Shown here piece by piece: positions 23,975 through 43,302 of a stretch of DNA of 64,000 bases. The position numbers and the translations under genes were made by a program. The stretch lies in assembly GCA_964580935.1 (NCBI GenBank), contig CAZOLG010000005.1, positions 10,988 to 74,987 on the forward strand. The letters are read 5' to 3'. The DNA comes from an uncultured Methanomassiliicoccales archaeon. Its GTDB lineage: Archaea > Thermoplasmatota > Thermoplasmata > Methanomassiliicoccales > CAZOLG01. The first letter of the stretch is position 1, and each line of letters opens with the position of its first letter. Below the pieces are notes generated by a model, which worked only from the letters and a program-made list of their open reading frames with translations, did no database searches and had not been told where the DNA came from.

Positions 23975-24037
23975 ACCGGATTGTGGCAGAAACGTCCGGT
24001 CCGCTCCGGACGTACGACAGAAAAGGAGCCCGAGAAG

Positions 24038-25607: not shown

Positions 25608-25796
25608 GTGATGACCATGCCGGCGAGAATTGAGAAGAGCTGCGAGGGTTGTGGTGTTTGCATTCCTTCATGCCCAGAAGATATAATCAAGGAGGAGGAG
25701 GGCAGGATCATCATTCAAGAAGCATTCTGTAGGTCCTGTGGCCTGTGTGTTGATTCATGCCCCGTCGGCGCCATCTCTATCCGGGAAGAGGGTTAA
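25608..25796 (+). CDS. 2x[4Fe-4S] ferredoxin
   Basis: 62 aa with two CxxCxxCxxxCP motifs (CEGCGVCIPSCP and CRSCGLCVDSCP). Confidence 0.8.
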   Translation: MMTMPARIEKSCEGCGVCIPSCPEDIIKEEEGRIIIQEAFCRSCGLCVDSCPVGAISIREEG

Positions 25797-25822
25797 GTAG
25801 ACATAAGGAGGTTCATAAATCG

Positions 25823-27778
25823 ATGACCTATTCAGTCAACTTCTTTCCTAAAAATATCACAGTCAAAGTTAAGGAGGGCACCGATCTTCTGGAGGCGGCC
25901 TATCAGGCAGGCATTGAGATTGAGAGTATTTGTGGCGGAGAGGGGACCTGTGGAAAGTGCAAAGTGGTGGTAGAGGGAGAGGTAGAGTCTCCCCCCACAG
26001 GGAAGATCTCTGAGGAAGAGAGAGAAAAGGGGTACAGGCTGGCATGTCAGACGCTGGTCAGAGGGGACGTCAACGTCCTGGTGCCCATCGAAGCGCAGGT
26101 GGCCGATCATAAGATCCTTACCAGCGCTTACCTGGCCGAATTGGAAGAGATCACGCCCCTGGTCAATTCCACATATCTCTCTCTTCCCGAACCCACGCTG
26201 GAGGACAACGTGGGAGATTTGGACCGTGTGGTCCGGGGCCTTGGTTTTGAGGACGGAGAGGTCACGGCCCCGTTGGACCTTCTGAAGAAGATGCCTTCCA
26301 CTCTGAGGGGGAACGATTGGGAAGTGACCGCGTTCTTGGAGGAGTATGAGGGGGAGAAGAAACTGATCAACCTATGTGGTGGTGACCACACCTCCAGAGA
26401 GTACGGGATTGCCGTCGACATAGGCACCACCACGGTGGTTCTCTCCCTGACCGACCTTCAGACAGGTGAGGTGATCGCCCAGGCTTCAGACTACAACAAA
26501 CAGATCCTGTGCGGTGAAGATGTACTTACCCGGATAGCTTACACGGAAGAGGAGGGTGTATCAAGACCGAACAGGCTGGTTCTGGACACGATCAACTTCC
26601 TCATTTCTCAGGTGGCAAGTGAGGTCCGGGACTGTGAAGAGGTAGAGGGGGAGATCGGGACCTGGGAGATCAACAGCATGACCGTGGCTGGGAATACCAC
26701 GATGATACACCTGTTTCTGGGACTCGACCCCCGGTACATAAGATATGAACCTTACATCCCCACCGTCAACGTACCGCCTATATTCAGGGCAGGAGAGTTA
26801 AACTTGCACATCAATCCCCAGGCCCCGGTATTCATACTGCCGGGAAGGGCCGGTTACGTGGGCGGGGATATAACCGCTGGTGTTCTGGCCACTGAACTGT
26901 ACAAGAAGTCTGAACTCTCCCTGCTCATAGATGTGGGCACCAACGGCGAAGTGGTGCTGGGCAATGAGGACTGGATGGTTGCCTGTTCCTGCAGCGCGGG
27001 CCCGGCCTTCGAGGGGGGGGAAGTAAGATACGGCATGAGGGCCATGGCGGGCGCCATAGACTCAGTGAAGATCAGCGAGGATTTCGAGGTGGAGTACACC
27101 ACCATACAGCAGGAGAAGCCCAGAGGGATCTGCGGATCAGGAATGATCGATCTTCTGGCAGATATGCTCGTTCAGGGGATTATCAACAAGAAGGGGCAGA
27201 TACAGGATGTTGCCACCGACCGGGTAAGGGAAAGAAACGATACCAAAGAATTTGTAATCGCCTGGGGACACGAGACAAGTCTGGGGGAGGACAGAATAGC
27301 CCAGATGGACGGAGAGGGAGAGATCGTGGCTGAAGAGAGCGAGGGGATAGATATCGTCATCACTGAGAACGATATAGCCAATGTGGTCAGAACCAAGGGG
27401 GCCGTCTACGCCGCCTGCAGGGTGCTGTTGAACTCCGTCGATCTCAGGTTCGAAGACCTGGATCACATCTACATCGCAGGAGGATTCGGGAACTACCTGG
27501 ACCTGGACAAAGCGATAGTCCTGGGACTCCTGCCCGACATACCCAAAGATAAGTTCACCTTCATTGGCAACGGGTCCCTGGCCGGGGCGAGACTGGCTCT
27601 ATTGTCCGAGAGAATGAGAGAGGATACGAAGGAGATCTTCAAGAAAATGACCTACTTCGAGCTCAGCACTACCAAGATGTTCTTCGATGAGTTTTCGTCT
27701 TCTCTTTTCCTACCTCATACAGAGATCAGTCAATTTCCGACCGTGGGCGCTATTCTCGACGAGAAGGAGAATCCCTAA
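25823..27778 (+). CDS. Reductive activator of corrinoid proteins (RACo/AcsV-like): [2Fe-2S] ferredoxin domain plus ASKHA ATPase
   Basis: Start ATG 25823 lies behind AAGGAGG. The N-terminus has CGGEGTCGKCKV, followed by ASKHA-like blocks (GIAVDIGTTT, DVGTNGE). About 650 aa. Confidence 0.82.
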   Translation: MTYSVNFFPKNITVKVKEGTDLLEAAYQAGIEIESICGGEGTCGKCKVVVEGEVESPPTGKISEEEREKGYRLACQTLVRGDVNVLVPIEAQVADHKILTSAYLAELEEITPLVNSTYLSLPEPTLEDNVGDLDRVVRGLGFEDGEVTAPLDLLKKMPSTLRGNDWEVTAFLEEYEGEKKLINLCGGDHTSREYGIAVDIGTTTVVLSLTDLQTGEVIAQASDYNKQILCGEDVLTRIAYTEEEGVSRPNRLVLDTINFLISQVASEVRDCEEVEGEIGTWEINSMTVAGNTTMIHLFLGLDPRYIRYEPYIPTVNVPPIFRAGELNLHINPQAPVFILPGRAGYVGGDITAGVLATELYKKSELSLLIDVGTNGEVVLGNEDWMVACSCSAGPAFEGGEVRYGMRAMAGAIDSVKISEDFEVEYTTIQQEKPRGICGSGMIDLLADMLVQGIINKKGQIQDVATDRVRERNDTKEFVIAWGHETSLGEDRIAQMDGEGEIVAEESEGIDIVITENDIANVVRTKGAVYAACRVLLNSVDLRFEDLDHIYIAGGFGNYLDLDKAIVLGLLPDIPKDKFTFIGNGSLAGARLALLSERMREDTKEIFKKMTYFELSTTKMFFDEFSSSLFLPHTEISQFPTVGAILDEKENP

Positions 27779-27911
27779 ACGGTACCGTCTTCCCGCACAG
27801 GCATTTTTCTCTTCTGTAGTTGAACAGTCCCCGTGGCAACTTTTCCCCACACTCACAGACTTCGAGATAGTCTTGTTCGATGTACTTTTCACAGAACGGA
27901 CATTCCGACAT
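27750..27911 (-). CDS. Possible small Zn-ribbon protein (53 aa), not in the supplied track
   Basis: Hand translation gives MSECPFCEKYIEQDYLEVCECGEKLPRGLFNYRREKCLCGKTVPFRDSPSRRE. It has three Cys pairs. An AT-rich TATA-like element (TATATATAATTAAT, about 27946-27960) lies upstream, and GGTGA precedes the ATG. The ORF overlaps the RACo 3' end by 29 nt. Confidence 0.3.
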   Translation of the reverse strand: MSECPFCEKYIEQDYLEVCECGEKLPRGLFNYRREKCLCGKTVPFRDSPSRRE

Positions 27912-28047
27912 CTTGTCACCGCTACTGGTAAAATACTTCGTTGATATATATAATTAATGTTCGACAAATATCGATTATGAGCGGTGAGGGGGGAGAAAAA
28001 CACCCGACTCTGTACCCAAGAAATGTTTAATAGTGACCACCTGAATT

Positions 28048-29082
28048 GTGCCAGCCGTGAACTGGAACTGCCTGCCCACCTGCATCGGGTCGCTGCCCTT
28101 CACTGATGAGAAAGAGGCCGTAGACCTGGTGCTGGCCCAACTTTCATCGATACCTTTCTGGCCTCAGCTGCCGAAGAAGGGGTTCAGGGAGAACATGTAT
28201 GCACAGTATGCCTACCACCTGCCGGGGATCGACCTGGATCATGAGGGGCAGAAGATCACTATCAATGCCGATGATTCCCAGCTTGAGAGTTTCTACTTGG
28301 AAGTGCTGGCGGAGAACATGGAACATTTCGATTACCCTGAGGACTTCTTCAGCGGGTTTCATGAGTTCATGGGCCGGGACTTGCCGGAGGACATCTGCGC
28401 GGTAAAGGGCCAGATCACGGGGCCGGTAAGCGAGGGGCTCCAGATCCTGGACCAGGGAGGGAAGCCTGTTCTATACGACGATACATACAACGAAGTGGTG
28501 CGGAAGAACCTGAACATGATGGCTCGCTGGCAGGAGGAGAGGCTGAAGGAAAAACTGGACCGTACCATCGTATTCATTGACGAACCTTATCTGTCCCTGA
28601 TGGGAACGCCCTTTGCCAGCATACCTGAACAGGCAGCCATCTCGTGGATGAACGATGTAATGGACGGCCTCGAGGGACTGGTCGGTGCACACTGCTGCGG
28701 TAATACCGACTGGCCCACGGTGATGGCCACCGGTATTGACATACTGTCATTCGACGCCTACGAATACGGGCACACGATTGCACTATACGCGGAAGAGGTG
28801 AGCGAATTCCTGGACCGCGGAGGTGCCCTGGCCTGGGGTTTCATCCCCAACACAATAGACTCTCTGCAGGGGGAAAATGTTCAGTCTCTGGTGAAGGATG
28901 CAAGAGAGCATTTCAAATCATTAGCAGAGAAAGGGATAGACCTGGATCTGATCATCAAGAATTCACTGATCACACCCCAGTGCGGTCTAGCAGAGGTTGA
29001 AGAGGCAACCAGTGTTCGCATTTTAGAGATGTTGAATCAGGTATCGGAGAGGATCAGAACGGAGTACAGTTTGGAGGACTGA
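28048..29082 (+). CDS. MetE C-terminal-like ('core MetE'-type) Zn-dependent methyltransferase
   Basis: 344 aa. MetE-type Zn/thiol-activation motifs are present: GAHCCGNTDW (His-x-Cys) and TPQCGLAE (C-terminal Cys). There is no N-terminal folate-binding barrel. The stop lies 2 nt before the cooC ATG, with GGAGGA inside its 3' end. Confidence 0.68.
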   Translation: MPAVNWNCLPTCIGSLPFTDEKEAVDLVLAQLSSIPFWPQLPKKGFRENMYAQYAYHLPGIDLDHEGQKITINADDSQLESFYLEVLAENMEHFDYPEDFFSGFHEFMGRDLPEDICAVKGQITGPVSEGLQILDQGGKPVLYDDTYNEVVRKNLNMMARWQEERLKEKLDRTIVFIDEPYLSLMGTPFASIPEQAAISWMNDVMDGLEGLVGAHCCGNTDWPTVMATGIDILSFDAYEYGHTIALYAEEVSEFLDRGGALAWGFIPNTIDSLQGENVQSLVKDAREHFKSLAEKGIDLDLIIKNSLITPQCGLAEVEEATSVRILEMLNQVSERIRTEYSLED

Positions 29083-29084
29083 CT

Positions 29085-29846
29085 ATGAGTTATACGATTG
29101 CAGTTGCAGGCAAAGGTGGTGTGGGTAAATCCACCATCTCGTCTATACTAGTGAGAACGATAGTCCAGAAGGTCGATGATATAATACTCGCCGTTGATGC
29201 CGACCCTAACGCCAACCTGGGAGAGAAACTGGGAGTTCCAGTAGAGAAGACCATCGGAGACCTTAGAGAGGACCTTCTCAATGAGGCGGAGGAGATACCG
29301 GCGGGTACCAGCAAGCAGGAATATGTGAGATACCAGCTGCGGTTGGCGATGTCGGAGGGAGAGATGTTCGATCTGCTCACCATGGGCCGACCAGAGGGGC
29401 CCGGATGCTACTGTTACATCAACAACATACTCAGAACATATCTGGACGGCATGATGGAGGAGTACCCCTACGTGGTCATCGACAACGAAGCGGGGATGGA
29501 GCATCTGTCCAGGAGGACTACCAAGAGGATGGATCTCCTGGCAGTGGTCACTGACGCCACCAAGGTGGGAGTGGAGACGGCAACAAGAATTGCAGAACTG
29601 GCAGAGGAGATGGAATTGAATGTCACCAACAGGGTCCTGCTGGTGAACCGGGTTCAGAACGACCTACATCCCGTGGTGAAGGAGGTCATCTCCAATTCAG
29701 GATTTGAAAACGTAATAAAGGTGCCCTTTGACAAACAGGTCGATGAGCTGACCATCGCGGGCAGACCCTTGACTGCGTTGGACAGAACCAGTTCGGCGGC
29801 GAGGACCATAAAGGACCTGGTGCAGCAGATCAGAGAGTGGAATTGA
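29085..29846 (+). CDS. cooC: CooC/AcsF-family Ni-insertion ATPase (copy 1)
   Basis: 253 aa. It has the deviant Walker A GKGGVGKST and the CxC Ni motif (GPGCYCYIN). Confidence 0.9.
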   Translation: MSYTIAVAGKGGVGKSTISSILVRTIVQKVDDIILAVDADPNANLGEKLGVPVEKTIGDLREDLLNEAEEIPAGTSKQEYVRYQLRLAMSEGEMFDLLTMGRPEGPGCYCYINNILRTYLDGMMEEYPYVVIDNEAGMEHLSRRTTKRMDLLAVVTDATKVGVETATRIAELAEEMELNVTNRVLLVNRVQNDLHPVVKEVISNSGFENVIKVPFDKQVDELTIAGRPLTALDRTSSAARTIKDLVQQIREWN

Positions 29847-29849
29847 AAA

Positions 29850-29896
29850 TAGAAGTAAGAGAAATAGAGGAAAAGATAAGGGTTTTTTAGGCTTTT
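29850..29896. terminator. Convergent intergenic region with oligo-T tracts on both strands
   Basis: T6 lies at 29883-29888 and T5 at 29893-29897 on the + strand. T-rich runs lie on the - strand downstream of acsC. Archaeal termination commonly uses oligo-dT. Confidence 0.35.
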
Positions 29897-31234
29897 TCAG
29901 TCCATTGACTTCAACAGCTTGGGGATCCCGCTCGACTCCTGCGGACCCACAATCACATCCAGTCCTGTGAGCTCCTCGAGCTTTCCGCTCATCCTGGAGA
30001 CCATACCCGGGATTATGATTTCTCCTCTCTTGGAATTCTCCTGGGCATCCGAATCTTCCAAGGCCTTGGCCACCAATTCAGGTGTCAGCTTTCCGGCCGC
30101 AAAAGCGGTCATCACAGACAGCCCTTCAGTGTCCACCACTTGAAGCCACACCGGCTTCTTGCTCTTCTCCACGTCCCCAATCACGGTGAAGTATGTCAGG
30201 GAGAAGTTGGTGGTGAATACTATCGGCGAATCCTCGTCGGGATCGTTCACCGCATACAATTTAGGCTCCACCTGGATCGGTACCTGCGGGTCTGTGTATA
30301 TGTTCTGACGCAACACGAACAGGGGCAGGGCGTGTTCTACCTTCAGCTCGTCAAAGGCCACCACGCTGCCGTACTTCATGGTGGCCACGATGCCCTTGAG
30401 TACCGACTTATCGCCGTCCAGTGCGTTGACGAAAATCGGGTATCCCAATCCCCTGAACGTCTTGTTGATGGAGATTCTCCTGACAATGGTGCTCTTCTCC
30501 AGTAGTTCCTTTAGATCGCTTGAACCGAAGTCGATGACTATTTTCTCCACTCCTGCCTTTTTCACCTTGTCCACCAGATCGGCCAGTTCGTCGAGGCTGC
30601 CGTCTTCAAATACCACCAGTGGGCAGTCCAGCTCGTCGGCAACCGATGCCATCTGGTCCGCGTTGTCAACGGTGGCCGCATGAAGGAGTGGTTTCTTATC
30701 AGCGATCCGCGAAGCTGCGGCCTTTATAGACTCAGGGTCTTTGGAAAACAGGATCAGAGGCAGTTCCGTACCGTTGGCCACTTTTTCCACGACCTCAGCG
30801 AATGCATCAGCATCCCCCGAATCGTCCCTGACCCCGACCATGTCCATCTTTATTATCTGGCCCACACGCTCGAACTGTAGCCCGTTCGCTTTGTTCACCT
30901 TGGCTTCTATCTCCTCATCAGAGGCCTTGTCGGAAACGGTGAGAGCGAAGGCTACAGGGTGGAAGAACTTCTTTTCGTGCCTGTACAACTCCGTCTCATC
31001 TCCCATCTCGATCTGGTTCTCTCCAGTCCCCACTTTTACTAGCTTGATAGGCGGCGCAGACGAGGCTTCCAGTTCCGCCTTTGCATCATCAGAAACATTC
31101 GGGCAGTCCTCCAGTTCGACCTTCTGGTTGGCCAGCTGCATCGCAAAGGCCAGACAGGTGGGGAACCCGCAGTCGCCACAGTTGGTCTGGGGAAGTAATT
31201 TGAATATCTCCATAGCTGTAGGCATTTCAGTCAC
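29897..31234 (-). CDS. acsC: Corrinoid iron-sulfur protein large subunit (AcsC/CdhE)
   Basis: 445 aa. The N-terminal [4Fe-4S] motif is NCGDCGFPTCLAFAM...CP. It looks colinear with Moorella AcsC as I remember it (TNFSLTY, IVGPQESSGI). Confidence 0.9.
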   Translation of the reverse strand: MTEMPTAMEIFKLLPQTNCGDCGFPTCLAFAMQLANQKVELEDCPNVSDDAKAELEASSAPPIKLVKVGTGENQIEMGDETELYRHEKKFFHPVAFALTVSDKASDEEIEAKVNKANGLQFERVGQIIKMDMVGVRDDSGDADAFAEVVEKVANGTELPLILFSKDPESIKAAASRIADKKPLLHAATVDNADQMASVADELDCPLVVFEDGSLDELADLVDKVKKAGVEKIVIDFGSSDLKELLEKSTIVRRISINKTFRGLGYPIFVNALDGDKSVLKGIVATMKYGSVVAFDELKVEHALPLFVLRQNIYTDPQVPIQVEPKLYAVNDPDEDSPIVFTTNFSLTYFTVIGDVEKSKKPVWLQVVDTEGLSVMTAFAAGKLTPELVAKALEDSDAQENSKRGEIIIPGMVSRMSGKLEELTGLDVIVGPQESSGIPKLLKSMD

Positions 31235-32177
31235 CTCCTCTCAGGTCGTCCACCGCTTCATTGATTATCTTCATTGCCCCAGGGCTGCGCACAATAAGCA
31301 TATCCGCCCCGGACATGATGGCTGCTATACCGGTGGTCGCCTCCCACCAGTCGCCTCGCTCCTTCACGTCCCCCAACTCAGGGCTAGGATCTGTGGCTTC
31401 TCTTGCTCCCCATGCTGCCGAAGCGTCGCATATCATGGGGTTCTGCAGTATGTTGTCCCCCATCAGAGCCGCCAGGCGTATTCTCTCGTTGACCGAGTAA
31501 GAGTATTCTAGTCCCACCCCCAGAGCGGCCATCAACGGATCGGCTATGACGTCTTCGAGATCAACATCGAAGTCCGTGAGCAAGATATTGATCTGCTTGG
31601 CCAGGTTGATATCAAGGTTTGAGAATCCGATGAGGACATGGTCATTAGACATCGCGGCCGCCGATATGGACTTATAGGCGTCCTCCTCGGCATGGCCCAG
31701 TACCAGACGTTCATCGGGGGCCGCGTTGCTCACCGCCTCCATCGTCTTGGCGTCCGTGTCCTCGTGACCGCATCCGTAAACGATGAGGGGCAGCTTTACA
31801 GTGTCCAATACCTCCTTCACCGTCTCGGCTGCCTCTTCTGGAGAACGGTCCTCTTCTTCAGGGTTGGTGGACAGGAACCTGAGGCATATCGCATCCGCCC
31901 CGAATTCCTCCCACTTCTTCGCCCATTGGGCGGGGTCGTCCACCGCATCGCCAAATACCTCCCTGACCACATCTGGGAAATCCTTGAGTTTATCCAAGAC
32001 CTCTCCAGCAATAGCCGGTCGATGAGGCGATTCGTTCTCGAAGGATAGGAAGGGTAGACCGGTCTGTCCACCGATTGTCACTGTGTTCCTTGAACCTCCC
32101 TCTTCCTCCCCCTTTCCTAGTGTCACTTCTCTAATCTTACCGCTCCATTCTTCTTTTGGCAAAGGTACTTCAGTCAT
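31227..32177 (-). CDS. acsD: Corrinoid iron-sulfur protein small subunit (AcsD/CdhD)
   Basis: 316 aa, a TIM-barrel AcsD-like protein. It overlaps acsC by 8 nt and lies directly downstream of the CODH/ACS gene. Confidence 0.88.
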   Translation of the reverse strand: MTEVPLPKEEWSGKIREVTLGKGEEEGGSRNTVTIGGQTGLPFLSFENESPHRPAIAGEVLDKLKDFPDVVREVFGDAVDDPAQWAKKWEEFGADAICLRFLSTNPEEEDRSPEEAAETVKEVLDTVKLPLIVYGCGHEDTDAKTMEAVSNAAPDERLVLGHAEEDAYKSISAAAMSNDHVLIGFSNLDINLAKQINILLTDFDVDLEDVIADPLMAALGVGLEYSYSVNERIRLAALMGDNILQNPMICDASAAWGAREATDPSPELGDVKERGDWWEATTGIAAIMSGADMLIVRSPGAMKIINEAVDDLRGGD

Positions 32178-32199
32178 TGAACTTCCTCCTTTTCGATGT

Positions 32200-35100
32200 T
32201 CAACTTATCAATGGGGGCATATCCAGGGCGGGATGGTCCACCTTCTGCATCCACTCGGTAAGACCCTGCGCGTCGGTGCAGATCGTCTCATCCGCTATCT
32301 TCTCCACGAAGTCTGGTTTTCCAAGTTCCTCGGCCCTCTCCTTCAGATCGTCCATCAGTGCTTCCTTCAACGACTTGGGCATCCAGGCAATACGGAAAAA
32401 GCCGCCGTCCGCGGGGATGAACTTCTCGCTGATCAGGTATTTCCTACCCACACCTATGAATCCCGGAGTCTGTTTTCCACCGCCGACAGAACCGGCCAGT
32501 GTGGAGAACTTCATTCCCAAAGGAGTTATTCCCGGGTACTCACGGTTGACCACCACCACTCCCTGCATGTCTGTGGTCATACCCACGATGCATTCGAAAC
32601 ACCCGCAGGAAGTCATCGGGTCCTCCATCATTGTGTAGGCATTGAACTTCTTCAGCTTGTGATGGCTGTATTCATAGACGGCCTCGTTAACTCCTTTCCA
32701 CTGGCCCTTCTCTGCGTCAATGACCTCTCCTTTCTCTATTGGCTGGTTGGGTCCGGTAGGGGTGATCTCTTTGCTTGCCCTGGCATCGAGCCAGTTGATC
32801 GCACCGCACAGGCCCAGTCTCTGGGGAGTGATCACGCATACGTGGTCGGGGGCGAACGACTGACAGAGAGTGCAGGAATAGAAGATATCCACCGCCTCGT
32901 CGGTGAGGTCAGCGATCCGCTCGTCCCTCTTCTCGTAGGCCTCCTTGGCCTCGGGTATGTAGTCCTGCATCGCCTCTTCGTCGGTGAGCACCGTTACCTG
33001 AACCCTGCTTATGATGTTCCCGAACTCTTCCTTCAACTTTGTTATTAGTATGTCTCCGATGTGTTTGAACCGGAGCCCAGCGTTGACCGAACTCTTGCTC
33101 AACCGGATCCACAGAATGTCCCTCTGTCCGGTGTGCCATCCTCCCTCAGCGAAGTTAATGAACTGGTGTATCCTCCTTTCGAGCACGGACTCGAAGTCTT
33201 CTTCCATCTTCTTACCGTACACTTCGACCACGATGCCGAGGGGGCTCTTTCCGCCCTCTTCCATCTCATCAACGTCCTTTCCGATGAGGGTGATCTTTCC
33301 ATCTTCCACCTCGTCCTCGTCCCTCATCTTGAGGATCTCGAAAGCGGTGGTCTTGGCCGCTCCGCCAGCTTCGATGTACGTCTGCGGCCTCCTGACCGTC
33401 TCCCCCTCAAAAGCGGGACCATAGGCCACAGGTATGTCGACGGGTTCCAGCTTGACCTGTATGTCTCTGACCTCGATGGCGGTCTGGATCATCTTCTCGT
33501 AGTCCTTCTGCACCACGTACTTATCAGGTATCTCCTCCACCTCCTGGTCAGTGATGGTCGGAGAGCCGTTGAACATTACCGCGAACTCGGCCGCGGCCTT
33601 GATATGGTCGATGGGGCCCATCTGAAGCACGAAGACCTTGGGCCTCTTGGAGAGGTACTTGTACAGTGACTCCCTGTCTCCTCTTTCAACCCCTCCGAAT
33701 GAGAGTGCTGCCCTTATTGCGAAGTTCAGTCCGTGTATGGCCTGAGTGAACTCTCCCACAGGGTAAAGCATGATGTCCAAGCCCATCTGTATGCCCTCGT
33801 CCTGCAGTTGCCTGATGACATCGAATGTGGCTATGATCAGCATACCCTTGCTCTGACAGTCACGGACCACCTTGGCCAGTTTTTCAGGGTCTTCTGCGGT
33901 CCCCACGAGGACCGCTGCTCCCGGTATTGTGTCGTCCACGAAGTCGATCCCCAGTTCCCTGAGCACCATGTCGGGAACGAATCCGCAGTACGGTGTATCC
34001 TCGTAGGGGTCGTCCGTCTCCACGTACTTCAGTGCCTCTACGATCTCCGCGGAGATCATAGTGGCCTCTCCCGCGATAAGAGCGTTCTCGTAGGTGGACT
34101 CCTCCCGGATCTTGTTCCGGACCTTGCCCAGTATCGTGGGCAGGTCGCCGAGTTTCTTCACCTCGGCACCGTCCCAGGCGAAAATGGAGGGCAGCTCATA
34201 CCCAGTATCCGGGTATTCCACCGGCTCCTGGTACCCGTATCGATCGATGGCCACTCCCAGCAGCTGATCAGCGTACCCAGTAGCGATAATCGCTCCCTCG
34301 ATGGCCATCTCGTAAAGCCTCTCCTGACTGATGGGTTCACCCTCCTCTCTCACGTAAGTATTATCCAGTCGCAGTACCCATCTCCTGTACTCCAGCGTGT
34401 TAAGGATCTTGTCCGCGGCCTTCATGGGGTCCTTCTCGAAGATGAAGTACCCGCCGTAGACGTCCCTGGCCGTGTTCTCCAGTACCTCGGTCACCAGGGA
34501 TGAACCGTAGATGTAGTTGATTGTGCCTACATGGGTGGGCATCCCCATGGCCACACACCAGGCACCGATGGTCACCGCTTTTTCGTGGTTAGCTTCCGGT
34601 GCTGAGGCCACGAACGGTATCTCGTCCACATCGGTATCGAACCTCTCTGCTATGGCAGTGGCGAAATTGGCCGCCCTGCTGTTGTCCACGCAGGAGCCCA
34701 TGTGCCATATGGGTGGCAGGTCGACCCCGTTCTCCCCCTTCAGCCCGCTGATGAATTTGTTAAGGCCTTCTCCGGCGTACTCCTCCAGTGCCTCCGAGGA
34801 CATCAGACCTTCCTTGGCCAGTGCGGCGGCCGAACAGCCAGTGGTCACGATCAGCACGTCATTGGCTATCAACTCCTTGGCTATGGTCACGTGGTTGTAA
34901 TCCTGAACCGCATTCTGGTTGTTACAGCCGGCCATCAGTGCCACGCCCCTGATGGTGCCGTCTTTGATGTTATCTATGATGTGCATCAACGGATCAGATT
35001 CGTTGTAAGGGGAGCAGAGTTCCTCGATCTGCTCGAGGCTGAACCCGGCAATCACCTCGTTCTTGATGTCAGGGATGAAAATATTCTCGTTGTCTTCCCT

Positions 35101-36279
35101 CTGAGTATAGGCCTCTATCGCCAGCCTTATGATGGCCCTGGCGCTCTCTTCAGCGTCCTCCTCCCTAAACTGTATATGTGTATCATTGGGAAGTCGCACG
35201 TTAGGCATGGTGGTGGTCATCTTGGTGGGAAGACAGGAACACAACTGGGCCATGGAGGGAACGATACACTGATAGTCAGCCACCACCAGGTCCACAGCGC
35301 CCGTAGAAAGCACCAACTCCTGGGAGGAGAAGTTAGCGGCCATCGGGACCCCCTTTCGCATCAGAGTCTCGTTCCCGGTACAGCATATACCTATGATATT
35401 GATTCCCTCAGCACCAGCATCCTTGGCCTCATCCTCCATCTCTTTGGCCACGTCCACCACCACATCACTGAGCACTGGGTTGTGGCCGTGAACGGCTATA
35501 TTGACCATGTCCTTGTTGATGGCCCCCAGATTGGCCATGGTTTTCACCAGTTTCGGGGTGCCGAACAGGATGTCGGAGAGGTCCGTTGAGATCTGCTCAC
35601 CGGTGAGATCCGCGACGGCGGCATTTATTCCGGCGAACAGGATGGGTACTGGATCGGCGTCACACCCAAGGGTGGTGCGATGCATGATATCCGAGATTGA
35701 CTGCTCAATATTATTGGGCATCACGCCCAGTCTTTTCCACAGGGCAATCCTGTCCTCTGTGATCGTAGAGGTGGCAAATCTGGTGGGCACTTCCTCATGC
35801 CGGTTGAAATCGTCCCAGACCACCTCCAGTATTTCTTCCATCACATCGTGTTCTTCGACACCCTCGGTCTCAATACCCAGACGGCCGGCAACTCTCTCCA
35901 GCTTCTCCTTATCCTTAATACTGTAAGCGGGAGCTTTTCCCTCTAGGACCTTGTGAACCGTCTCTGCCAGGTGTCTTCCGTGACCGGAGTGGGCAGCCGC
36001 CCCTCCAGCGATATTCCTTATCAGATTTCGGGCCACTATGGTGTAGGCTCTCGCACCGCAGATCCCCTTGTCCGGTTTGCCTCCGAAGGGGTTGATCCGA
36101 CAGGGGCCCTGGAGGCAGTTCCTGCAACATATACCGAGCTCTCCGAAGCCGCACTGGGGCTGCATGGCTTCGAACCGGTCCCACATCGTCTCTATATTCT
36201 TGTCAGCAGCAACGGGCAGACACTGCATTACGGCCTCATCGCAACTTCTCCCTAGATCTATCTTATCTTTAGACTCCAT
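32200..36279 (-). CDS. acsAB: Single-polypeptide fusion of CooS/AcsA-type Ni-CO dehydrogenase (aa 1 to ~636) and full-length AcsB acetyl-CoA synthase (aa ~650 to 1359)
   Basis: One uninterrupted 1359-aa ORF. The N-terminal half carries CODH motifs: QPQCGFGELGICCRNCLQGPCRI, HGHNP, ICCTGNE, GCNN, MGSCVDNSR. The C-terminal half carries AcsB motifs: ATGYADQLL, YPDTGYELP, the A-cluster ligands SCTLCQSFAPDHVC, LCGA and TSCGCFE, and IAWMPKSLK. The junction is ...LEYRRWVLRLDNTYVREEGEPISQERLYEM... (about nt 34324-34371). Confidence 0.9.
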   Translation of the reverse strand: MESKDKIDLGRSCDEAVMQCLPVAADKNIETMWDRFEAMQPQCGFGELGICCRNCLQGPCRINPFGGKPDKGICGARAYTIVARNLIRNIAGGAAAHSGHGRHLAETVHKVLEGKAPAYSIKDKEKLERVAGRLGIETEGVEEHDVMEEILEVVWDDFNRHEEVPTRFATSTITEDRIALWKRLGVMPNNIEQSISDIMHRTTLGCDADPVPILFAGINAAVADLTGEQISTDLSDILFGTPKLVKTMANLGAINKDMVNIAVHGHNPVLSDVVVDVAKEMEDEAKDAGAEGINIIGICCTGNETLMRKGVPMAANFSSQELVLSTGAVDLVVADYQCIVPSMAQLCSCLPTKMTTTMPNVRLPNDTHIQFREEDAEESARAIIRLAIEAYTQREDNENIFIPDIKNEVIAGFSLEQIEELCSPYNESDPLMHIIDNIKDGTIRGVALMAGCNNQNAVQDYNHVTIAKELIANDVLIVTTGCSAAALAKEGLMSSEALEEYAGEGLNKFISGLKGENGVDLPPIWHMGSCVDNSRAANFATAIAERFDTDVDEIPFVASAPEANHEKAVTIGAWCVAMGMPTHVGTINYIYGSSLVTEVLENTARDVYGGYFIFEKDPMKAADKILNTLEYRRWVLRLDNTYVREEGEPISQERLYEMAIEGAIIATGYADQLLGVAIDRYGYQEPVEYPDTGYELPSIFAWDGAEVKKLGDLPTILGKVRNKIREESTYENALIAGEATMISAEIVEALKYVETDDPYEDTPYCGFVPDMVLRELGIDFVDDTIPGAAVLVGTAEDPEKLAKVVRDCQSKGMLIIATFDVIRQLQDEGIQMGLDIMLYPVGEFTQAIHGLNFAIRAALSFGGVERGDRESLYKYLSKRPKVFVLQMGPIDHIKAAAEFAVMFNGSPTITDQEVEEIPDKYVVQKDYEKMIQTAIEVRDIQVKLEPVDIPVAYGPAFEGETVRRPQTYIEAGGAAKTTAFEILKMRDEDEVEDGKITLIGKDVDEMEEGGKSPLGIVVEVYGKKMEEDFESVLERRIHQFINFAEGGWHTGQRDILWIRLSKSSVNAGLRFKHIGDILITKLKEEFGNIISRVQVTVLTDEEAMQDYIPEAKEAYEKRDERIADLTDEAVDIFYSCTLCQSFAPDHVCVITPQRLGLCGAINWLDARASKEITPTGPNQPIEKGEVIDAEKGQWKGVNEAVYEYSHHKLKKFNAYTMMEDPMTSCGCFECIVGMTTDMQGVVVVNREYPGITPLGMKFSTLAGSVGGGKQTPGFIGVGRKYLISEKFIPADGGFFRIAWMPKSLKEALMDDLKERAEELGKPDFVEKIADETICTDAQGLTEWMQKVDHPALDMPPLIS

Positions 36280-36810
36280 CCAAATCCTCTCCCGTGGTTA
36301 CCTACAAATTGAAGCTTATCCAATTCCTGAGAAAATGTTCTAGTAGAATGAGCGGGTTTCATTAACCTCCCGCAAAACACATCCTTCTCATTGGTCACCG
36401 TACATCCTCCCAGAAAAAACGATCCTCCCTCCCCCAGTGAATAGCCGGGACTACTGGCGATGTCATAACGCGGGCTATCTATTCGGGAAGGGGTAATTGT
36501 CCCTCTCATGGGCACACCCACTCACCAAGGAAATTCACCATCCAGTGAATCTTCTCAGCGCTGGCACTGCGAGATTGTGATGGTCATACTTTAATGTTTT
36601 CGTCCTTTGTCGAAGCCGGGTAGGTTCATAGCGTTTACGCCCGCCCAAGAGAGAAGGAGCTTTGCCTCTTTGAACATGTGGGGCAGCCACCATCCTCGAC
36701 ATTGTGTGAATGGGTGATTGCCTCACTGGATACTCAGAAGAGTTGATCATAGAGGGGCACTTTCAGGCGAATCGATGTGAATGACGCTGGCCGGAAGGAT
36801 GACAAGAGTC

Positions 36811-36828
36811 ATTCGTCATATGACGAAT
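36811..36828. promoter_or_regulatory. Perfect 18-bp palindrome ATTCGTCATATGACGAAT, a candidate operator
   Basis: Read directly from the sequence. It lies 30 nt downstream of the ACT-protein stop and ~530 nt upstream of the acsAB start. Additional ATGAC half-site-like copies occur at 36780-36805. Confidence 0.3.
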
Positions 36829-36857
36829 ATCAAGTTCGCAAGATACAATACTACTGC

Positions 36858-37790
36858 TCAGAACTCGATATCATTTAGGGCCACCAGGCTGTACTCTCTC
36901 CTCATGTCGGAGAGGAACTCTTCGATGTTCTTCCTCAGATCATCTTTCCCTATGGGACAGCTACTGACATCGGCTATGAGATCCAGGGTCATCTTCTCGT
37001 AGTAAGAGAGTACCTTTGTGTAAACACTCAATAGATTGATGTCGTATTTCGCCAGGTACTCGGTCACCTGCTGTATGGCCCCCGGCCTGTCGGGTATGGT
37101 GAAGTCAATTTCCATCAACTGTATACCCGGTTTGAGCAGGGTGATAGAGAGTACCCAGGAATCGGTATCGCCGACCAGCATCACGGGATGGTTCTCCTCG
37201 ACACTCTCGAACAGTTCCAGGTACTCCTGGGGCACCTCGAATTCGCCGTTCTTGATCTCGGAAGAGCTCCGGTGCCTCCTCTTGACCACCTTGGTCTGCA
37301 CTGAGGACACAGACGGGGCCACGCCCTTGGTGTATCGATCGGAGATGTTCGATGGTTTGATCTCCAGTGCGTCCACCTTGTTAAGGGAGGGGTCGTTCTT
37401 CCCCTTCATAGTATTGAACTCATCCAGTAGTTCTTCATGGTCGCCATAGTAGCTCAGATCGACCAGCATCTTCCATACCATGCATACATCGGAGATCATA
37501 CTCAGAGAGACCGAATTCAAGATGTCTATATTCCTGTCGCCCATGAACTTGGCTATCTGAGCACATGCTCCTGGGATATCCACCATGTAGAAGGTGGCCG
37601 AGCATATCCTCCTGTAGTTCTCAGGTCCGAAGGTGGAGAGCACTATCTCATAGCTCCTAGAGCCGTTGTAATCGTACCTGAACATGGTGCTGAATACCTG
37701 GCTCCCGTCGGACAGGCCGAGTGGTTTACCTACCCTATCGCTCACCTTGACCTTACCGTCCTTCAACCTCGCGAAATCCCACAGTCTCAT
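36858..37790 (-). CDS. Uncharacterised protein with two ACT domains and a possible N-terminal AbrB/SpoVT-like domain
   Basis: 310 aa. The ACT-like segments are FYMVDIPGACAQIAKFMGDRNIDILNS and FTIPDRPGAIQQVTEYLAKYDINLLSV. The N-terminal GKVKVSDRVGKPLGLSDGSQV resembles a swapped-hairpin DNA-binding motif; this match is weak. Confidence 0.55.
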   Translation of the reverse strand: MRLWDFARLKDGKVKVSDRVGKPLGLSDGSQVFSTMFRYDYNGSRSYEIVLSTFGPENYRRICSATFYMVDIPGACAQIAKFMGDRNIDILNSVSLSMISDVCMVWKMLVDLSYYGDHEELLDEFNTMKGKNDPSLNKVDALEIKPSNISDRYTKGVAPSVSSVQTKVVKRRHRSSSEIKNGEFEVPQEYLELFESVEENHPVMLVGDTDSWVLSITLLKPGIQLMEIDFTIPDRPGAIQQVTEYLAKYDINLLSVYTKVLSYYEKMTLDLIADVSSCPIGKDDLRKNIEEFLSDMRREYSLVALNDIEF

Positions 37791-38139
37791 GTGACCGCCC
37801 CTGGCAACGTACTCATCTAGGATAAATGTTGTGTAGTACTGAAAAGGTTTGCTAGCCGCCTCTGCGACGTGCCCGTACGGGGCTGTGCTTTGCTCCCGGC
37901 AGTAACGGCCTTTGGAACGATGGAAAAGTTCTTAGGGAGGTAATTTCAGGTTACCCGTATTGGCTGCGGGCTCGTGTAAGATACGGTCTCATGGATCCTC
38001 TGATAGCAACTGAGAATTCGATCATCTGCAGGCCGGGTACTGACTTCTTGGGACTATTAATATCTTCACTGGGCCTGACGGCAGTGGGATTGCTGGTGGC
38101 AAAGCGCCTAATGAACAGGTGAGGGGGAGCCATTGAAGA

Positions 38140-38943
38140 CTATTCAGAAAGCCTTGTCTCCAGAGTCTCCTTGACGGTTCTCACTGCTTCCACCACATCT
38201 TCGATACCGTCCACGTCCATCGGGGAGCGACCTGCCAGGTCAGCTTCCATCATCTTCTGATTGAACGGTATGGTGGATATCAGCTCTATGCCCAGCTCGT
38301 CCAGTCTCTCTTTTATCACCCTTTCATCCTCTTCAGAAAAGGCCTTGTTCAGGACGGCCACCACCCTGGGTATCCCGATGTCTGTGGCCAACTTCTTGAT
38401 CTTGGAGGCGGTCTCTACGGACCTCATTCCCGGTTCAACCACGATGATCATGACGTCCATGTTTTTTGAAGAAGCTCTCCCCAGATGCTCCAGGCCGGCC
38501 TCCATATCCATGATCAGGTACTGGTCCTCCTCCAGAACAAGGTATTTTAGCAGGTTCTTCAGCAGGGCGCTTTCAGGACAGAAACATCCTCCTCCACCGG
38601 ACCTGATAGTCCCCAGAATGAGAAGCCTCACGTTGTCCTTGGCCCCCACCGCGTACCTCTCCGCCAGATCGTCCACCTTGGGGTTCAACTTGAACATCCC
38701 GCCGTAACCGGATCCGGGCCTGGAACCGGTCCGCTCCTCGATCAGGTCCAGCATCTGCGAGAGGGGTACCACTCCCTCCAGCTCTTCCTCGGGAACGCCC
38801 ACGACACTGGCCAGATTTGAAGCGGGATCAGCGTCCAGAACCAGGGTGTCTTTGCCCTCCCTCCCGAACAGTCTGGAGAGGATTCCTCCCAATGTGGTCT
38901 TTCCTACCCCGCCTTTACCTGATATGGCGATTTTCAATGCCAT
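38140..38943 (-). CDS. cooC: CooC/AcsF-family Ni-insertion ATPase (copy 2)
   Basis: 267 aa with GKGGVGKTT and the CxC motif (GGGCFCPES). It abuts cooT with no spacer. Confidence 0.9.
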   Translation of the reverse strand: MALKIAISGKGGVGKTTLGGILSRLFGREGKDTLVLDADPASNLASVVGVPEEELEGVVPLSQMLDLIEERTGSRPGSGYGGMFKLNPKVDDLAERYAVGAKDNVRLLILGTIRSGGGGCFCPESALLKNLLKYLVLEEDQYLIMDMEAGLEHLGRASSKNMDVMIIVVEPGMRSVETASKIKKLATDIGIPRVVAVLNKAFSEEDERVIKERLDELGIELISTIPFNQKMMEADLAGRSPMDVDGIEDVVEAVRTVKETLETRLSE

Positions 38944-39135
38944 TCAGACCCTCTTGAACACCACGCCATGACCGACCAGATTGGCTTCCTTCAGCTCCAC
39001 GTCTTCTAAGACCTTCTTGTCCCCAAGAATGTCCATACAGATCGCCTTGTTACCCTCCATAGTGATCTTGGTAACATCGGCCATGATCTCTTTTGCCTCG
39101 CCATCCTCAAACAAAAACACAGAAGATTCGCACAT
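38944..39135 (-). CDS. cooT: CooT-family small nickel-binding protein
   Basis: About 63 aa when started at ATG 39135, giving the N-terminus MCESSVFLF. Met-Cys2 is the CooT Ni ligand position. The size and beta-rich pattern fit CooT, and the gene sits directly upstream of cooC. Confidence 0.62.
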   Translation of the reverse strand: MCESSVFLFEDGEAKEIMADVTKITMEGNKAICMDILGDKKVLEDVELKEANLVGHGVVFKRV

Positions 39136-39353
39136 GGTTGTGAACACTCGATGCTTACCTATTTAACGCCTTTCATTAGCCTTCGATAGGAAGGTGGTTG
39201 ACAGTCGAAGTAAGTGAAGAATAGGACACCAATAGAACGATCTGGGATACTTCGGTCAAATCTTGAAATAACAATAGTGAATGGGAAAATGTTATGAATT
39301 GACATGAAATAGTATGATGGAAATCTGAACTATTTCCTTAGATTAGGGTTCTG

Positions 39354-41976: not shown

Positions 41977-43302
41977 TTGGAGAGAAAGAGAGTCATCATA
42001 ATGGGAGCGGCGGGTAGGGATTTTCATAATTTCAATACCTATTTCCGTGATAACCCTCTGTATAATGTCATTGCTTTTACTGCTACCCAGATACCGAATA
42101 TTGAAGGGAGAGAGTACCCCTCCAAACTGGCAGGATATCTGTATCCTAGCGGCATCCCCATCTTTCCAGAGGAGAGACTGCCCGAACTGATCAGGGAGTA
42201 CGAGGTCGATCAGGTGGTCTTCGCCTACAGTGATGTGCCGTACATGGAAGTGATGCATAAGGCCTCTATGATACTCAAGAACAAGGCGGACTTCCGGCTG
42301 ATGGGAAACTCGAGGACCGTTCTGAAGAGTGACGAGCCAGTGATCAGCGTGGGGGCGGTCAGGACAGGCTCTGGGAAGAGCCAGACCACCAGAAAGATCT
42401 GTTCGATACTGAGAGATAAAGGGCTAGACGTGGTAGCCGTCCGCCATCCCATGCCCTACGGCGATCTGGTAAAACAGGCAGTTCAGCGGTTCGCCAGTTA
42501 CGATGACCTGGACAGTCAGGACTGCACCATTGAGGAGAGAGAAGAGTATGAACCGCTCATCGATATGGGGATAGTGGTATACGCGGGCGTCGACTACGAG
42601 AAGATCTTGAGGGAGGCGGAGGAGGAGGCGGACATCATCGTGTGGGATGGTGGGAACAACGACACCCCTTTCTACGAATCGGACCTGCATATCGTGGTGG
42701 TCGATCCCCACAGACCGGGGCATGAGGTGAGTTACCACCCTGGAGAAGTCAATCTCAGGATGGCCGATGTGGTATTGATCAACAAGATACAGACGGCCAA
42801 CAGGAAGGGTATCCTTACAGTCAAGGAGAACATAGTAAAGGTCAATCCCTCGGCCACTGTTATCGAAGCGGCGTCGACCATTTGCGTGGATGATAAAGAT
42901 ATGATCAGGGACAAGCGAGCCCTGGTGGTGGAAGACGGTCCCACGGTCACCCACGGTGGTATGGAGTACGGGGCCGGACTGATAGCCGCTGAGGACTACC
43001 GCGCTTCCGAGATCATAGATCCCCGACCGTTTGCCAAGGGCACGATCGCCAATACTTTTCAGGAATACCCTCACCTGAAGAGGGTGCTTCCCGCCATGGG
43101 GTACGGGGAGAAACAGAGAAGGGAGTTGGAGGAGACAGTGGAAGAGGCAGATGCCGATGTTGTGGTCTCGGGAACCCCTGTGGACCTGCGCAGGGTGATC
43201 GATGTCTCCAAGCCGATAGTCAGAGTTAGGTATGAACTGGAAGAGATCAGTCATCCTAACCTCGAAGAGCTGGTTACCGAGTTCTTAGATCAGAAGTTAT
43301 GA
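41977..43302 (+). CDS. COG2403-type P-loop NTPase (family annotated as predicted GTPase / cyclic 2,3-diphosphoglycerate synthetase-like)
   Basis: 441 aa. The N-terminus is VIIMGAAGRDFHNFN and the P-loop is GAVRTGSGKSQT. The family assignment is from memory and the function is not inferable. Confidence 0.6.
   Translation: MERKRVIIMGAAGRDFHNFNTYFRDNPLYNVIAFTATQIPNIEGREYPSKLAGYLYPSGIPIFPEERLPELIREYEVDQVVFAYSDVPYMEVMHKASMILKNKADFRLMGNSRTVLKSDEPVISVGAVRTGSGKSQTTRKICSILRDKGLDVVAVRHPMPYGDLVKQAVQRFASYDDLDSQDCTIEEREEYEPLIDMGIVVYAGVDYEKILREAEEEADIIVWDGGNNDTPFYESDLHIVVVDPHRPGHEVSYHPGEVNLRMADVVLINKIQTANRKGILTVKENIVKVNPSATVIEAASTICVDDKDMIRDKRALVVEDGPTVTHGGMEYGAGLIAAEDYRASEIIDPRPFAKGTIANTFQEYPHLKRVLPAMGYGEKQRRELEETVEEADADVVVSGTPVDLRRVIDVSKPIVRVRYELEEISHPNLEELVTEFLDQKL

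Follow-up and report, generated by a model that had tools for sequence, protein, structure and literature searches.

The acs gene cluster

The stretch of DNA treated here, called the window in the following, is 64 kb from an uncultured Methanomassiliicoccales archaeon (Thermoplasmatota) and carries at 25608-39147 a set of acs genes for CO dehydrogenase (CODH), for acetyl-CoA synthase (ACS) as well as for the corrinoid iron-sulfur protein (CFeSP), together with their accessory genes. About 60 open reading frames (ORFs) of the window were scanned against Pfam, and those of the acs region were also scanned against NCBIfam. The ORF listing and the scans give two convergent groups of genes. The plus-strand group has the order ferredoxin, RACo/AcsV (the reductive activator of CFeSP), an ORF of 344 aa and a CooC/AcsF-type ATPase. 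The minus-strand group, read from high to low coordinates, consists of CooT, CooC, an ACT-domain protein, an ORF of 1359 aa, AcsD and AcsC. A first-pass annotation of this DNA had the coordinates and the outline of the set right, but it left out the 344-aa and the ACT-domain genes and split acsAB in two. The accessory genes which it named (RACo, ferredoxin, two CooC/AcsF paralogs and CooT) were all recovered by Pfam and NCBIfam at the places it gave.

The AcsA-AcsB fusion

The ORF at 32200-36279 on the minus strand is one uninterrupted frame of 1359 aa with no internal stop codon or frameshift. Its residues 12-636 match TIGR01702 (CooS) with 692 bits (cut-off 478), and residues 660-1358 match NF040764 (three-domain AcsB) with 982 bits (cut-off 800). 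The CODH of about 636 aa in the first-pass annotation was correctly called CooS-like; it is not a separate gene but the N-terminal half of this frame. In the AcsA half the ligands C43, C51, C52, C55, C60, C74, H266, C299/C300, C338, C452, C482 and C530 are present, and the ligands of the C-, B- and D-clusters are invariant among the aligned homologues. The AcsB half has the A-cluster ligands C1136, C1139, C1148, C1158 and C1225-G-C1227.

Among the matches listed (at least 120, with 57-100% identity) all homologues carry both PF03063 and PF03598, and most of them are about 1355-1405 aa long. The fusion was also surveyed at the level of loci in GTDB representative genomes, one per species, in which the best match is 68% identical; loci are numbered with an L below. 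One open frame runs through both halves in 11 of the 17 archaeal loci, and in L010 the frame is open through the junction. The remaining five end at contig breaks or have frameshifts or an insertion inside. About 60 bacterial loci with both genes, including Bacillota, Chloroflexota, Desulfobacterota and Actinomycetota, have two frames with an intervening stop codon, often in the same reading frame. Since the same fusion is found in database homologues and in the archaeal loci it is not an assembly artefact, and fusion of acsA and acsB in a single frame is a feature of this clade.

The junction is a linker of 12 aa (D639-I650), which stands in for about 16 C-terminal residues of Moorella AcsA and about 16 N-terminal residues of AcsB. 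Among the fused homologues the linker varies both in sequence and in length (about 12-25 aa). Neighbour-joining trees of the AcsA half and of the AcsB half are congruent, and the archaeal fused clade is found in 200/200 bootstraps in each, a pattern which agrees with one fusion event and joint inheritance of the two halves afterwards. In the literature covered, which did not include Adam et al. 2018 and Lang et al. 2015, we found no published description of an AcsA-AcsB fusion.

One relative has only the second half. Methanomassiliicoccus sp. GCA_033485155.1 (L090, 17556-19700) codes for a lone AcsB of 714 aa in a cluster which is otherwise syntenic with that of the window. The protein is 66% identical to window residues 648-1359 and begins exactly at the fusion junction; no remnant of the CODH was found in the 21 kb of this locus. 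An ACS without CODH is also the situation in Dehalococcoides.

Two further length variants were seen. The fused homologues P0020 and P0025 (1894-1896 aa) carry an intein (PF14528, PF14890) which accounts for about 530 extra aa, and L014 has at 6808-12029 a matching span of 5.2 kb for an intein-bearing AcsAB. In seven Chloroflexota loci (L022, L028, L032, L039, L052, L053, L055) the acsB frame runs to 1200-1435 codons, either by fusion to a further downstream domain or by an insertion.

A clade-wide fusion amounts to a naturally tethered CODH/ACS and, as a single gene, could be a convenient choice for expression and for structural work on CO channelling. The fused, the intein-bearing and the CODH-less variants constitute a natural experiment on the coupling which the two activities need.

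Table 1. Genes and conserved blocks in and beside the acs cluster (positions in the window).
Feature	Position	Strand	Evidence or remark
Conserved promoter-proximal block upstream of purH	22335-22410	+	contains CATTCTATATAGTGTTGGCATAC at 22358-22380
purH (AICAR transformylase/IMP cyclohydrolase)	22421-23974	+	PF01808, PF02142; conserved cluster neighbour
ppcA, archaeal-type PEP carboxylase	23981-25513	+	PF14010 E=1.7e-189; conserved cluster neighbour
2x[4Fe-4S] ferredoxin	25608-25796	+	PF12838, PF00037; orthologue at same position in L001/L087
RACo/AcsV, ATP-dependent reductive activator of corrinoid iron-sulfur protein	25823-27778	+	PF00111, PF17650, PF17651, PF14574
MesB-type core methionine synthase, predicted, 344 aa	28048-29082	+	residues, fold, gene context
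CooC/AcsF-type Ni-insertion ATPase	29085-29846	+	PF01656, PF13614
AcsC, large subunit of corrinoid iron-sulfur protein	29897-31234	-	PF04060, PF03599; NF003195 558 bits
AcsD, small subunit of corrinoid iron-sulfur protein, 316 aa	31227-32177	-	PF03599; NF003376 356 bits (cut-off 280)
AcsB half of fusion, residues 651-1359	32200-34329	-	PF18537, PF03598, PF19436; NF040764
Fusion linker, D639-I650, DNTYVREEGEPI	34330-34365	-	junction alignment
AcsA (CooS-type CODH) half of fusion, residues 1-638	34366-36279	-	PF03063; TIGR01702
Conserved block about 300 nt upstream of acsAB start, CTTCGACAAAGRACGARARCMTTWAAGTA	36575-36625	-	alignment of four fused-type loci
ACT-domain protein, 310 aa	36858-37790	-	PF01842
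Second CooC-type Ni-insertion ATPase	38140-38943	-	PF01656; P-loop and C-F-C motif
CooT nickel chaperone	38944-39147	-	PF10133 E=3e-14, aligned from residue 5

Bacterial Acs type or archaeal Cdh type

The first-pass annotation described the structural genes as AcsA/AcsB/AcsC/AcsD rather than Cdh, and the scores against proteins in PDB strongly favour this view. The AcsB half scores 813 bits with the ACS of C. hydrogenoformans (7zkj_B/1ru3) and 810 bits with that of M. thermoacetica, in both cases over all three domains, versus 362 bits with Methanosarcina CdhC (9c0s_E), where only residues 949-1352 in the C-terminal domains are aligned. The N-terminal A1 domain which binds CODH (PF18537) is present, unlike in the two-domain CdhC. 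The AcsA half scores 702 bits with CODH-II (1su6) and 660 bits with M. thermoacetica AcsA, versus 28-35 bits with CdhA chains; TIGR00314 (CdhA) gives 53.5 bits on the fused ORF against a cut-off of 781, i.e., this is not the CdhA type of about 800 aa. AcsC and AcsD score 433 and 262 bits with the M. thermoacetica CFeSP subunits 4djd_C and 4djd_D, respectively, with no archaeal counterpart listed for either. With 316 aa AcsD agrees in length with the bacterial small subunits of known structure (309-323 aa); for archaeal CdhD the length is about 430 aa. The epsilon subunit CdhB was said to be missing, and indeed neither a CdhB-type nor any other Cdh-specific match was found by Pfam among the about 60 ORFs of the window that were scanned. 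Taken together, the sequence comparisons support assignment of the cluster to the bacterial Acs type and not to the archaeal Cdh type.

Such enzymes are not new in these organisms. A 2026 preprint (PMC13370988) has AcsB on record for Methanomassiliicoccales, Thermoplasmatota, Bathyarchaeota and further archaea, and Speth and Orphan (PMC6147122) describe for Methanomassiliicoccales a complete C1-tetrahydrofolate pathway besides acetyl-CoA synthase/CO dehydrogenase. AcsB of the bacterial type in these archaea, as well as mesB beside acsCD, is thus already published.

A predicted MesB-type methionine synthase in the cluster

The 344-aa protein has no Pfam match, and in NCBIfam it has only a weak one to methionine synthase (PRK00957, 33 bits). 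Many of its homologues are named 'methionine synthase II (cobalamin-independent)' by JGI, and the family comprises 377 clusters at 50% identity (E<=1e-30). Six residues (S15, D178, H215, C217, D236 and C312) do not vary across 18 homologues. In MesB from D. mccartyi homocysteine is bound by residues 15 and 177, and zinc by residues 214, 216, 235 and 311 (PMC7857596). The residues of the window protein are the same set shifted by +1 (S15 is unshifted), and the spacings between the zinc ligands are identical. An AlphaFold2 model (pLDDT 88) has a MetE-like fold and no folate-binding domain; the top Foldseek matches of this model are 3RPD and C-terminal barrels of MetE (E 2e-9 to 1e-6, TM score about 0.55-0.60), followed by MtaA (4ay7) and uroporphyrinogen decarboxylase. 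Matches of the protein to designer pentatricopeptide repeat (PPR) proteins among the PDB sequences were rejected as spurious, being repeat-summed artefacts.

Some 0.8 kb separate the gene from acsC, and the same linkage is found in eight related loci. In the related clusters readable at this point it lies between RACo and acsF; L089 keeps acsF with no RACo alongside. According to Price et al. Methanomassiliicoccales have MesB only, and in some methanogens mesB is in an operon with acsCD (PMC7857596). From its residues, fold and gene context, compared with the published description, the 344-aa protein is predicted to be a core methionine synthase of the MesB type, for which methyl-CFeSP would be the methyl donor. 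That mesB is part of the cluster lends support to a proposal in the literature, according to which methionine synthesis is fed directly by methyl-CFeSP.

MesB-like genes with 34-35% identity to that of the window were also seen a few kb upstream of acsA in two Chloroflexota loci (L063 1747-2784 and L027 4836-5855), and the linkage between mesB and acs is therefore not confined to archaea.

Accessory genes and promoter-like blocks

The ORF of RACo opens at 25757. NF040756 (AcsV) matches it with 639 bits and is aligned from residue 27, and because of this M23 (25823) is the likely start. The AcsF-type ATPase encoded at 29085-29846 has a P-loop (GKGGVGKS) and a C-Y-C motif, and the position of its gene is conserved in both types of cluster described below. 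A CooT-CooC pair is found upstream of acsAB also in L001, L007, L020 and L045. The true start of CooT is likely to be the ATG at 39135, which gives a protein beginning with Met-Cys.

The ACT-domain protein has, in addition to PF01842, a second weak ACT-like segment. Orthologues with 48-69% identity are found in L001, L003, L004, L009, L088, L089 and L090, and the position of the gene upstream of acsAB is conserved only in clusters with mesB. It has no match in PDB and its single-sequence structure model was unusable (pLDDT 36.5). A role in ligand-sensing regulation is possible.

The gap upstream of acsAB (36280-36857 in the window) is about 540-600 nt in the window, L087, L088 and L089, and only a block of about 40 nt within it is conserved across the four fused-type genomes. 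This block resembles a promoter with the transcription factor B recognition element and TATA box (BRE/TATA) and might function as one. Its location about 300 nt before the start of acsAB implies a long, poorly conserved 5' leader; in the long intergenic gaps of the cluster, including the one with this block, Rfam detected no RNA element. The motif CATTCTATATAGTGTTGGCATAC in the block upstream of purH has a single occurrence in the window. This block is a second putative promoter, and purH is probably the first gene of a purH-ppcA-fdx-RACo-mesB-acsF transcription unit.

Two cluster types and the position of acsE

The first-pass annotation noted that AcsE, the methyltransferase which delivers the methyl group to CFeSP in bacteria, is missing from the acs region, and proposed a search of the rest of the genome for acsE, metF, folD, fhs and the genes of the tetrahydromethanopterin (H4MPT) pathway. 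Within the window none of them was found: AcsE, MetF, DUF5981 (PF12225, encoded beside metF in the relatives), FlpD and Fhs have no match by tblastn (E<=1, with both bacterial and archaeal AcsE queries), and FolD and the H4MPT-pathway families have none in the Pfam scans of the ORFs. A radical-SAM gene at 52524-53894 was considered for methanopterin biosynthesis on account of the Pfam 'HMPTM' zinc ribbon and was rejected; NCBIfam identifies it as TrsS (531 bits, cut-off 490).

The absence holds for the whole window but not for the clade. There are two types of cluster among the fusion-bearing archaea. In the acsE type the order is acsAB-acsD-acsC-<acsF-<RACo-acsE>, with acsE next to RACo (L007, L010, L011, L017, L020 and L050), and cooT-cooC is located upstream of acsAB in L007 and L020. 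In the mesB/ACT type the order is ACT-acsAB-acsD-acsC-<acsF-<mesB-<RACo, found in the window, L001/L087, L002, L009, L073, L083/L088, L089 and L090. L083 and L088 are from one organism, with MesB, PpcA and PurH 99-100% identical.

In three genomes of the mesB/ACT type acsE lies directly beyond purH in divergent orientation: L087 (78% AcsAB identity), L083+L088 (81%) and L090. The full order in the first two is MetV-MetF-AcsE-PurH-PpcA-...-RACo-MesB-AcsF-AcsC-AcsD-AcsAB-ACT, and it is the same in L090 except that AcsB stands alone. Compared with the acsE type, this layout has purH-ppcA as an insertion at the front of the RACo operon and mesB as another ahead of acsF. The synteny of ppcA is found in L001/L087, L083/L088 and L090, and purH adjoins ppcA and RACo in L083/L088, L087, L090 and L093. 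In L084-L086 the series purH-acsE-metF continues to fhs and folD. A metagenome scan with AcsE of L087 gave three short contigs, all with ppcA/purH-acsE(-metF). At the level of the clade the missing AcsE is largely a matter of position. The suggestion in the first-pass annotation that PurH points to folate receives indirect support from this neighbourhood, and a C1-tetrahydrofolate pathway has been reported in Methanomassiliicoccales (PMC10804542, PMC6147122).

In the window about 110 nt of the intergenic region proximal to purH, including a TATA-like block, are conserved with the relatives, and upstream of it the similarity ends. The place of acsE is occupied by an unrelated gene, a fusion of amino-acid permease and universal stress protein (Usp). 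Since the permease gene occupies the acsE position and the purH-proximal block is retained, the absence of acsE is a lineage-specific rearrangement: the ancestral connection between acsE and purH-ppcA-fdx-RACo-mesB-acsF was broken just upstream of purH in the lineage of the window.

Proposed working of the system

We are rather confident that the window contains the bacterial-type CODH/ACS cluster which is standard for its clade, with a fused AcsAB, an embedded MesB-type gene, and acsE broken off upstream of purH. Judged from the sequence, the window encodes, with intact ligands, every part needed to interconvert CO2 and CO, to make or cleave acetyl-CoA, to carry methyl groups on a corrinoid, to reactivate the corrinoid and to insert nickel. 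The 1359-aa chain would be a CooS-type CODH with its C-cluster, tethered by the short variable linker to a three-domain ACS with its A-cluster. It would dimerise via the CODH half as CooS enzymes do, with an ACS tethered to each. CO formed from CO2 and reduced ferredoxin at the C-cluster would pass to the A-cluster, where it would be combined with CoA and the methyl group from the AcsC/AcsD CFeSP; the reverse direction would be possible too. RACo with its ferredoxin would re-reduce the inactive Co(II) form, and the two CooC-type ATPases and CooT would load nickel. The MesB-type enzyme is expected to move the methyl group from methyl-CFeSP to homocysteine to give methionine, and methyl-CFeSP would then be the point at which the routes to the A-cluster and to MesB part. 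An ADP-forming acetyl-CoA synthetase (10389-12512) may link acetyl-CoA to acetate and ATP.

Some points weigh against this reading. The trees of the two halves were made by neighbour-joining only and are unrooted. The family profile of the 344-aa protein finds MetE-type proteins among PDB sequences only at E=0.43 (3RPD), and the link to MetE is therefore one at the level of fold. In L089 (77%) the core cluster is likewise without RACo, ppcA, purH or acsE at its side; gene arrangement is therefore fluid, and the order called 'ancestral' comes from parsimony over a handful of loci. The pathway content is known from the 64 kb of the window only, and 'no AcsE' in such a window cannot be read as a gap in the pathway. 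The preferred reading covers relocation and loss of acsE alike, and the alternatives below differ in what they say about its fate.

We lean slightly towards a location of acsE, metF and the remaining genes of the folate-dependent methyl branch elsewhere in the genome, which would then have a complete Wood-Ljungdahl pathway of the tetrahydrofolate type. By the same narrow preference, the pathway would fix carbon and make acetate, or oxidise acetyl-CoA, with MesB as a side branch to methionine. Every related genome readable beyond purH has acsE-metF(-fhs-folD) there, and in the window the genes for CODH, ACS, CFeSP, RACo and nickel maturation are complete and intact, purH is kept, and the ADP-forming acetyl-CoA synthetase is present; the published C1-tetrahydrofolate pathway of Methanomassiliicoccales points the same way. 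Against this stand the total absence of methyl-branch genes from the 64 kb and the statement in PMC6147122 that many Methanomassiliicoccales do not have metF.

A true loss of acsE and metF, leaving a truncated pathway as in Dehalococcoides, is in our opinion a good deal less probable. In that case the CODH/ACS would cleave acetyl-CoA, the methyl group would go via CFeSP and MesB to methionine, and the CO would be oxidised to CO2 with formation of reduced ferredoxin. The synteny is broken exactly where the relatives have acsE-metF, the left flank shows decay in the form of an internally deleted remnant of AMP-forming acetyl-CoA synthetase (15639-16463), and mesB is kept inside the cluster. There is a precedent in D. 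mccartyi, which is without AcsE and MetF and obtains the methyl group of methionine from acetate (PMC7857596), and the Methanomassiliicoccus sp. relative would be further along the same road with an AcsB and no CODH half at all. It should be noted, however, that a full CODH half, two CooC, CooT and RACo would be costly if they served methionine alone, and that L089 separates the core cluster from the purH block without implying loss.

Slightly more doubtful still is the joint proposal that the fusion is an undescribed hallmark of one whole archaeal lineage and that acsE and metF are truly lost in the lineage of the window. As such a hallmark the fusion may span Thermoplasmatota/Methanomassiliicoccales and metagenome-assembled genomes labelled Bathyarchaeia or Halobacteriota; the tethered CODH/ACS may have arisen once, with later inteins in some members and deletion of the CODH half in Methanomassiliicoccus sp. 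As to the second part of the proposal, the fused enzyme, CFeSP and MesB may form a pterin-independent module which cleaves acetyl-CoA for the methyl group of methionine.

It has also been considered that the MesB-like enzyme replaces AcsE. Acting as a zinc-thiol methyltransferase in reverse it would load CFeSP in a methyl branch independent of pterins, with a methylated thiol such as methyl-CoM, methanethiol or methionine as the donor. The neighbour of RACo in the fused-type clusters is either acsE or the mesB-like gene and never both there, and MtaA (4ay7), one of the fold relatives, is a methylcobamide:thiol methyltransferase. However, L083, L087 and L090 have both mesB and acsE, within about 6-9 kb of each other; because of this coexistence in three relatives the two genes are not alternatives, and the replacement is very unlikely, both in its enzyme and in its donor. 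The invariant S15 and D178, which bind homocysteine, also fit a methionine synthase.

A long-resident cluster

The preferred reading, a cluster standard for its clade, also bears on the question of origin. The first-pass annotation suggested an acquired or an anciently bacterial-like module between archaeal flanks, and proposed a comparison of tetranucleotide and codon usage between 25.6-39.2 kb and the flanks. This comparison gave no island signal: GC at third codon positions (GC3) is 0.669 in the island versus 0.655 +/- 0.041 in the flanks, and the codon-usage distance and the tetranucleotide correlation of the island overlap the flank range. The Pfam scans found no integrase or transposase in the window, and its sole tRNA (43399-43504) is 4 kb from the cluster. 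Of the flanking genes named earlier PpcA (23981-25513), RadA (61560-62534) and PurH were confirmed, but geranylgeranylglyceryl phosphate synthase (GGGPS) was not; the sole prenyltransferase found by the Pfam scans of the window is a UbiA-family protein at 58031-58930.

The gene order, including purH and ppcA, recurs in relatives whose AcsAB is 66-81% identical, and each of the related loci recovered has the core cluster conserved, although these were found via the cluster's own proteins and are a weak test of patchiness. The nearest non-archaeal matches of the fused ORF are from Bacillota (48-52% identity, against 39-42% for Chloroflexota or Desulfobacterota); as a signal of origin the higher identity to Bacillota is suggestive only. 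The neighbour-joining trees contain three monophyletic groups (archaea, Bacillota and other bacteria). A conclusion drawn from them, that the archaea are nested within bacteria as sister to Bacillota, was withdrawn; the trees are unrooted, and a root between archaeal and bacterial AcsB is therefore equally compatible. PMC13370988 regards archaeal AcsB as possibly an ancient lineage and considers such a root possible.

Composition and synteny thus speak against recent acquisition, and the module may be an ancient bacterial-like one; to judge by these data the cluster is long resident in the lineage. A bacterial island recently transferred into the archaeal chromosome could be argued from the far higher scores of the structural proteins against bacterial Acs than against archaeal Cdh and from the proximity to Bacillota, but it is hardly credible at all given the absence of a compositional signal, of an integrase, a transposase or a flanking tRNA in the Pfam scans, the synteny of cluster and 'flanks' across archaeal relatives down to about 57% identity, a single archaeal clade (200/200) with an internal diversity matching several orders, and the possible antiquity of archaeal AcsB raised in PMC13370988. 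What looks like an island of bacterial acs genes in an archaeon is normal for this clade and long resident in it, and purH and ppcA belong to the conserved neighbourhood.

Other features of the window

At 15639-16463 (+) an ORF of 274 aa, accompanied by small ORFs at 14871-15642, is a remnant of an AMP-forming acetyl-CoA synthetase (Acs). Its residues 2-175 match Acs residues of about 96-269, and residues 124-252 match those of about 467-601; because it is N-terminally truncated and internally deleted it is probably a pseudogene. The region 9388-12512 (-) holds the ADP-forming acetyl-CoA synthetase (707 aa; TIGR02717 595 bits) beside a DRTGG/AAA_26 protein of 334 aa which resembles the N-terminal part of phosphotransacetylase.

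At 49638-56622 lies a set of genes of the TrsS / DVU_1553-1557 type, made up of the radical SAM protein TrsS (531 bits, cut-off 490), a redox protein of the DVU_1557 family, an AMP-dependent ligase of the DVU_1553 family, a DUF169 protein, a methyltransferase similar to MtaA and uroporphyrinogen decarboxylase (MtaA/URO-D-like), and an Fe-S protein similar to QueG and reductive dehalogenase (QueG/RDH-like). The tRNA at 43399-43504 (+) was found by Rfam (47 bits) but not by ARAGORN in its bacterial mode, which gave no tRNA for the window; the length of 106 nt suggests an intron.

A protein of 441 aa encoded at 41977-43302 (+) has weak P-loop similarity (cobW/LpxK, E ~1e-3). It recurs at L001 3600-4931, near cooT-cooC in the 78% relative, and could be a further accessory nucleoside triphosphatase. 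The density of PAS/histidine-kinase genes around the cluster is unusual (39354-41132, 13664-14755 and 44643-49310), and a response-regulator-PAS-PAS-kinase hybrid lies immediately beside cooT. The proteins of the window are markedly acidic, with a median isoelectric point (pI) of 4.9 for 25 proteins; that of AcsAB is 4.67 compared to 5.5-6.2 in more distant relatives. The acidity of these predicted proteins suggests adaptation to elevated salt.

Comparison with known systems

The bacterial architecture in an archaeon, the missing CdhB, and folate rather than methanopterin are typical of the clade and already in the literature, and the cluster of the window is one more example of a kind abundant in public data. 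The items of most interest are the clade-wide AcsA-AcsB fusion, the two cluster variants, and the Methanomassiliicoccus sp. with the AcsB half only. The bacterial-type AcsB previously reported in archaea (PMC13370988, PMC6147122) is from the same clade and is the same type of enzyme; in the parts of these two sources that were available there is no mention of a translational AcsA-AcsB fusion or of acsE-type versus mesB/ACT-type variants.

Compared with MesB of the Dehalococcoides mccartyi DET0516 family (Price et al. 2021, PMC7857596) the predicted methionine synthase has the same size (about 340 aa), likewise no folate-binding domain, the zinc ligands His-x-Cys...Asp...Cys and the homocysteine residues Ser and Asp at equivalent positions, and a gene beside acsC/acsD. 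The window differs from D. mccartyi in that mesB lies between RACo and acsF and that the cluster retains CODH.

With the CODH/ACS and CFeSP of bacteria (AcsABCD of Moorella thermoacetica, CODH-III/ACS of Carboxydothermus hydrogenoformans) the cluster has in common the four catalytic modules, complete in their metal-cluster ligands, an AcsB of three domains including the N-terminal one that docks to CODH, a bacterial size of the CFeSP subunits, and the presence of RACo, CooC/AcsF and ferredoxin in the cluster. It differs from them in having no acsE, in the mesB-type and ACT-domain genes and in its archaeal host; and, unlike the bacterial alpha2beta2 complex, AcsA and AcsB are one polypeptide in which the 12-aa linker replaces both tails. 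The Methanosarcina acetyl-CoA decarbonylase/synthase (ACDS, CdhABCDE) has the same overall chemistry, and its A-cluster domains are homologous to those of the window (362 bits to CdhC 9c0s_E); unlike that complex, the window has neither a CdhA-type subunit of 800 aa nor CdhB, and its AcsB keeps the N-terminal domain which is absent from CdhC.

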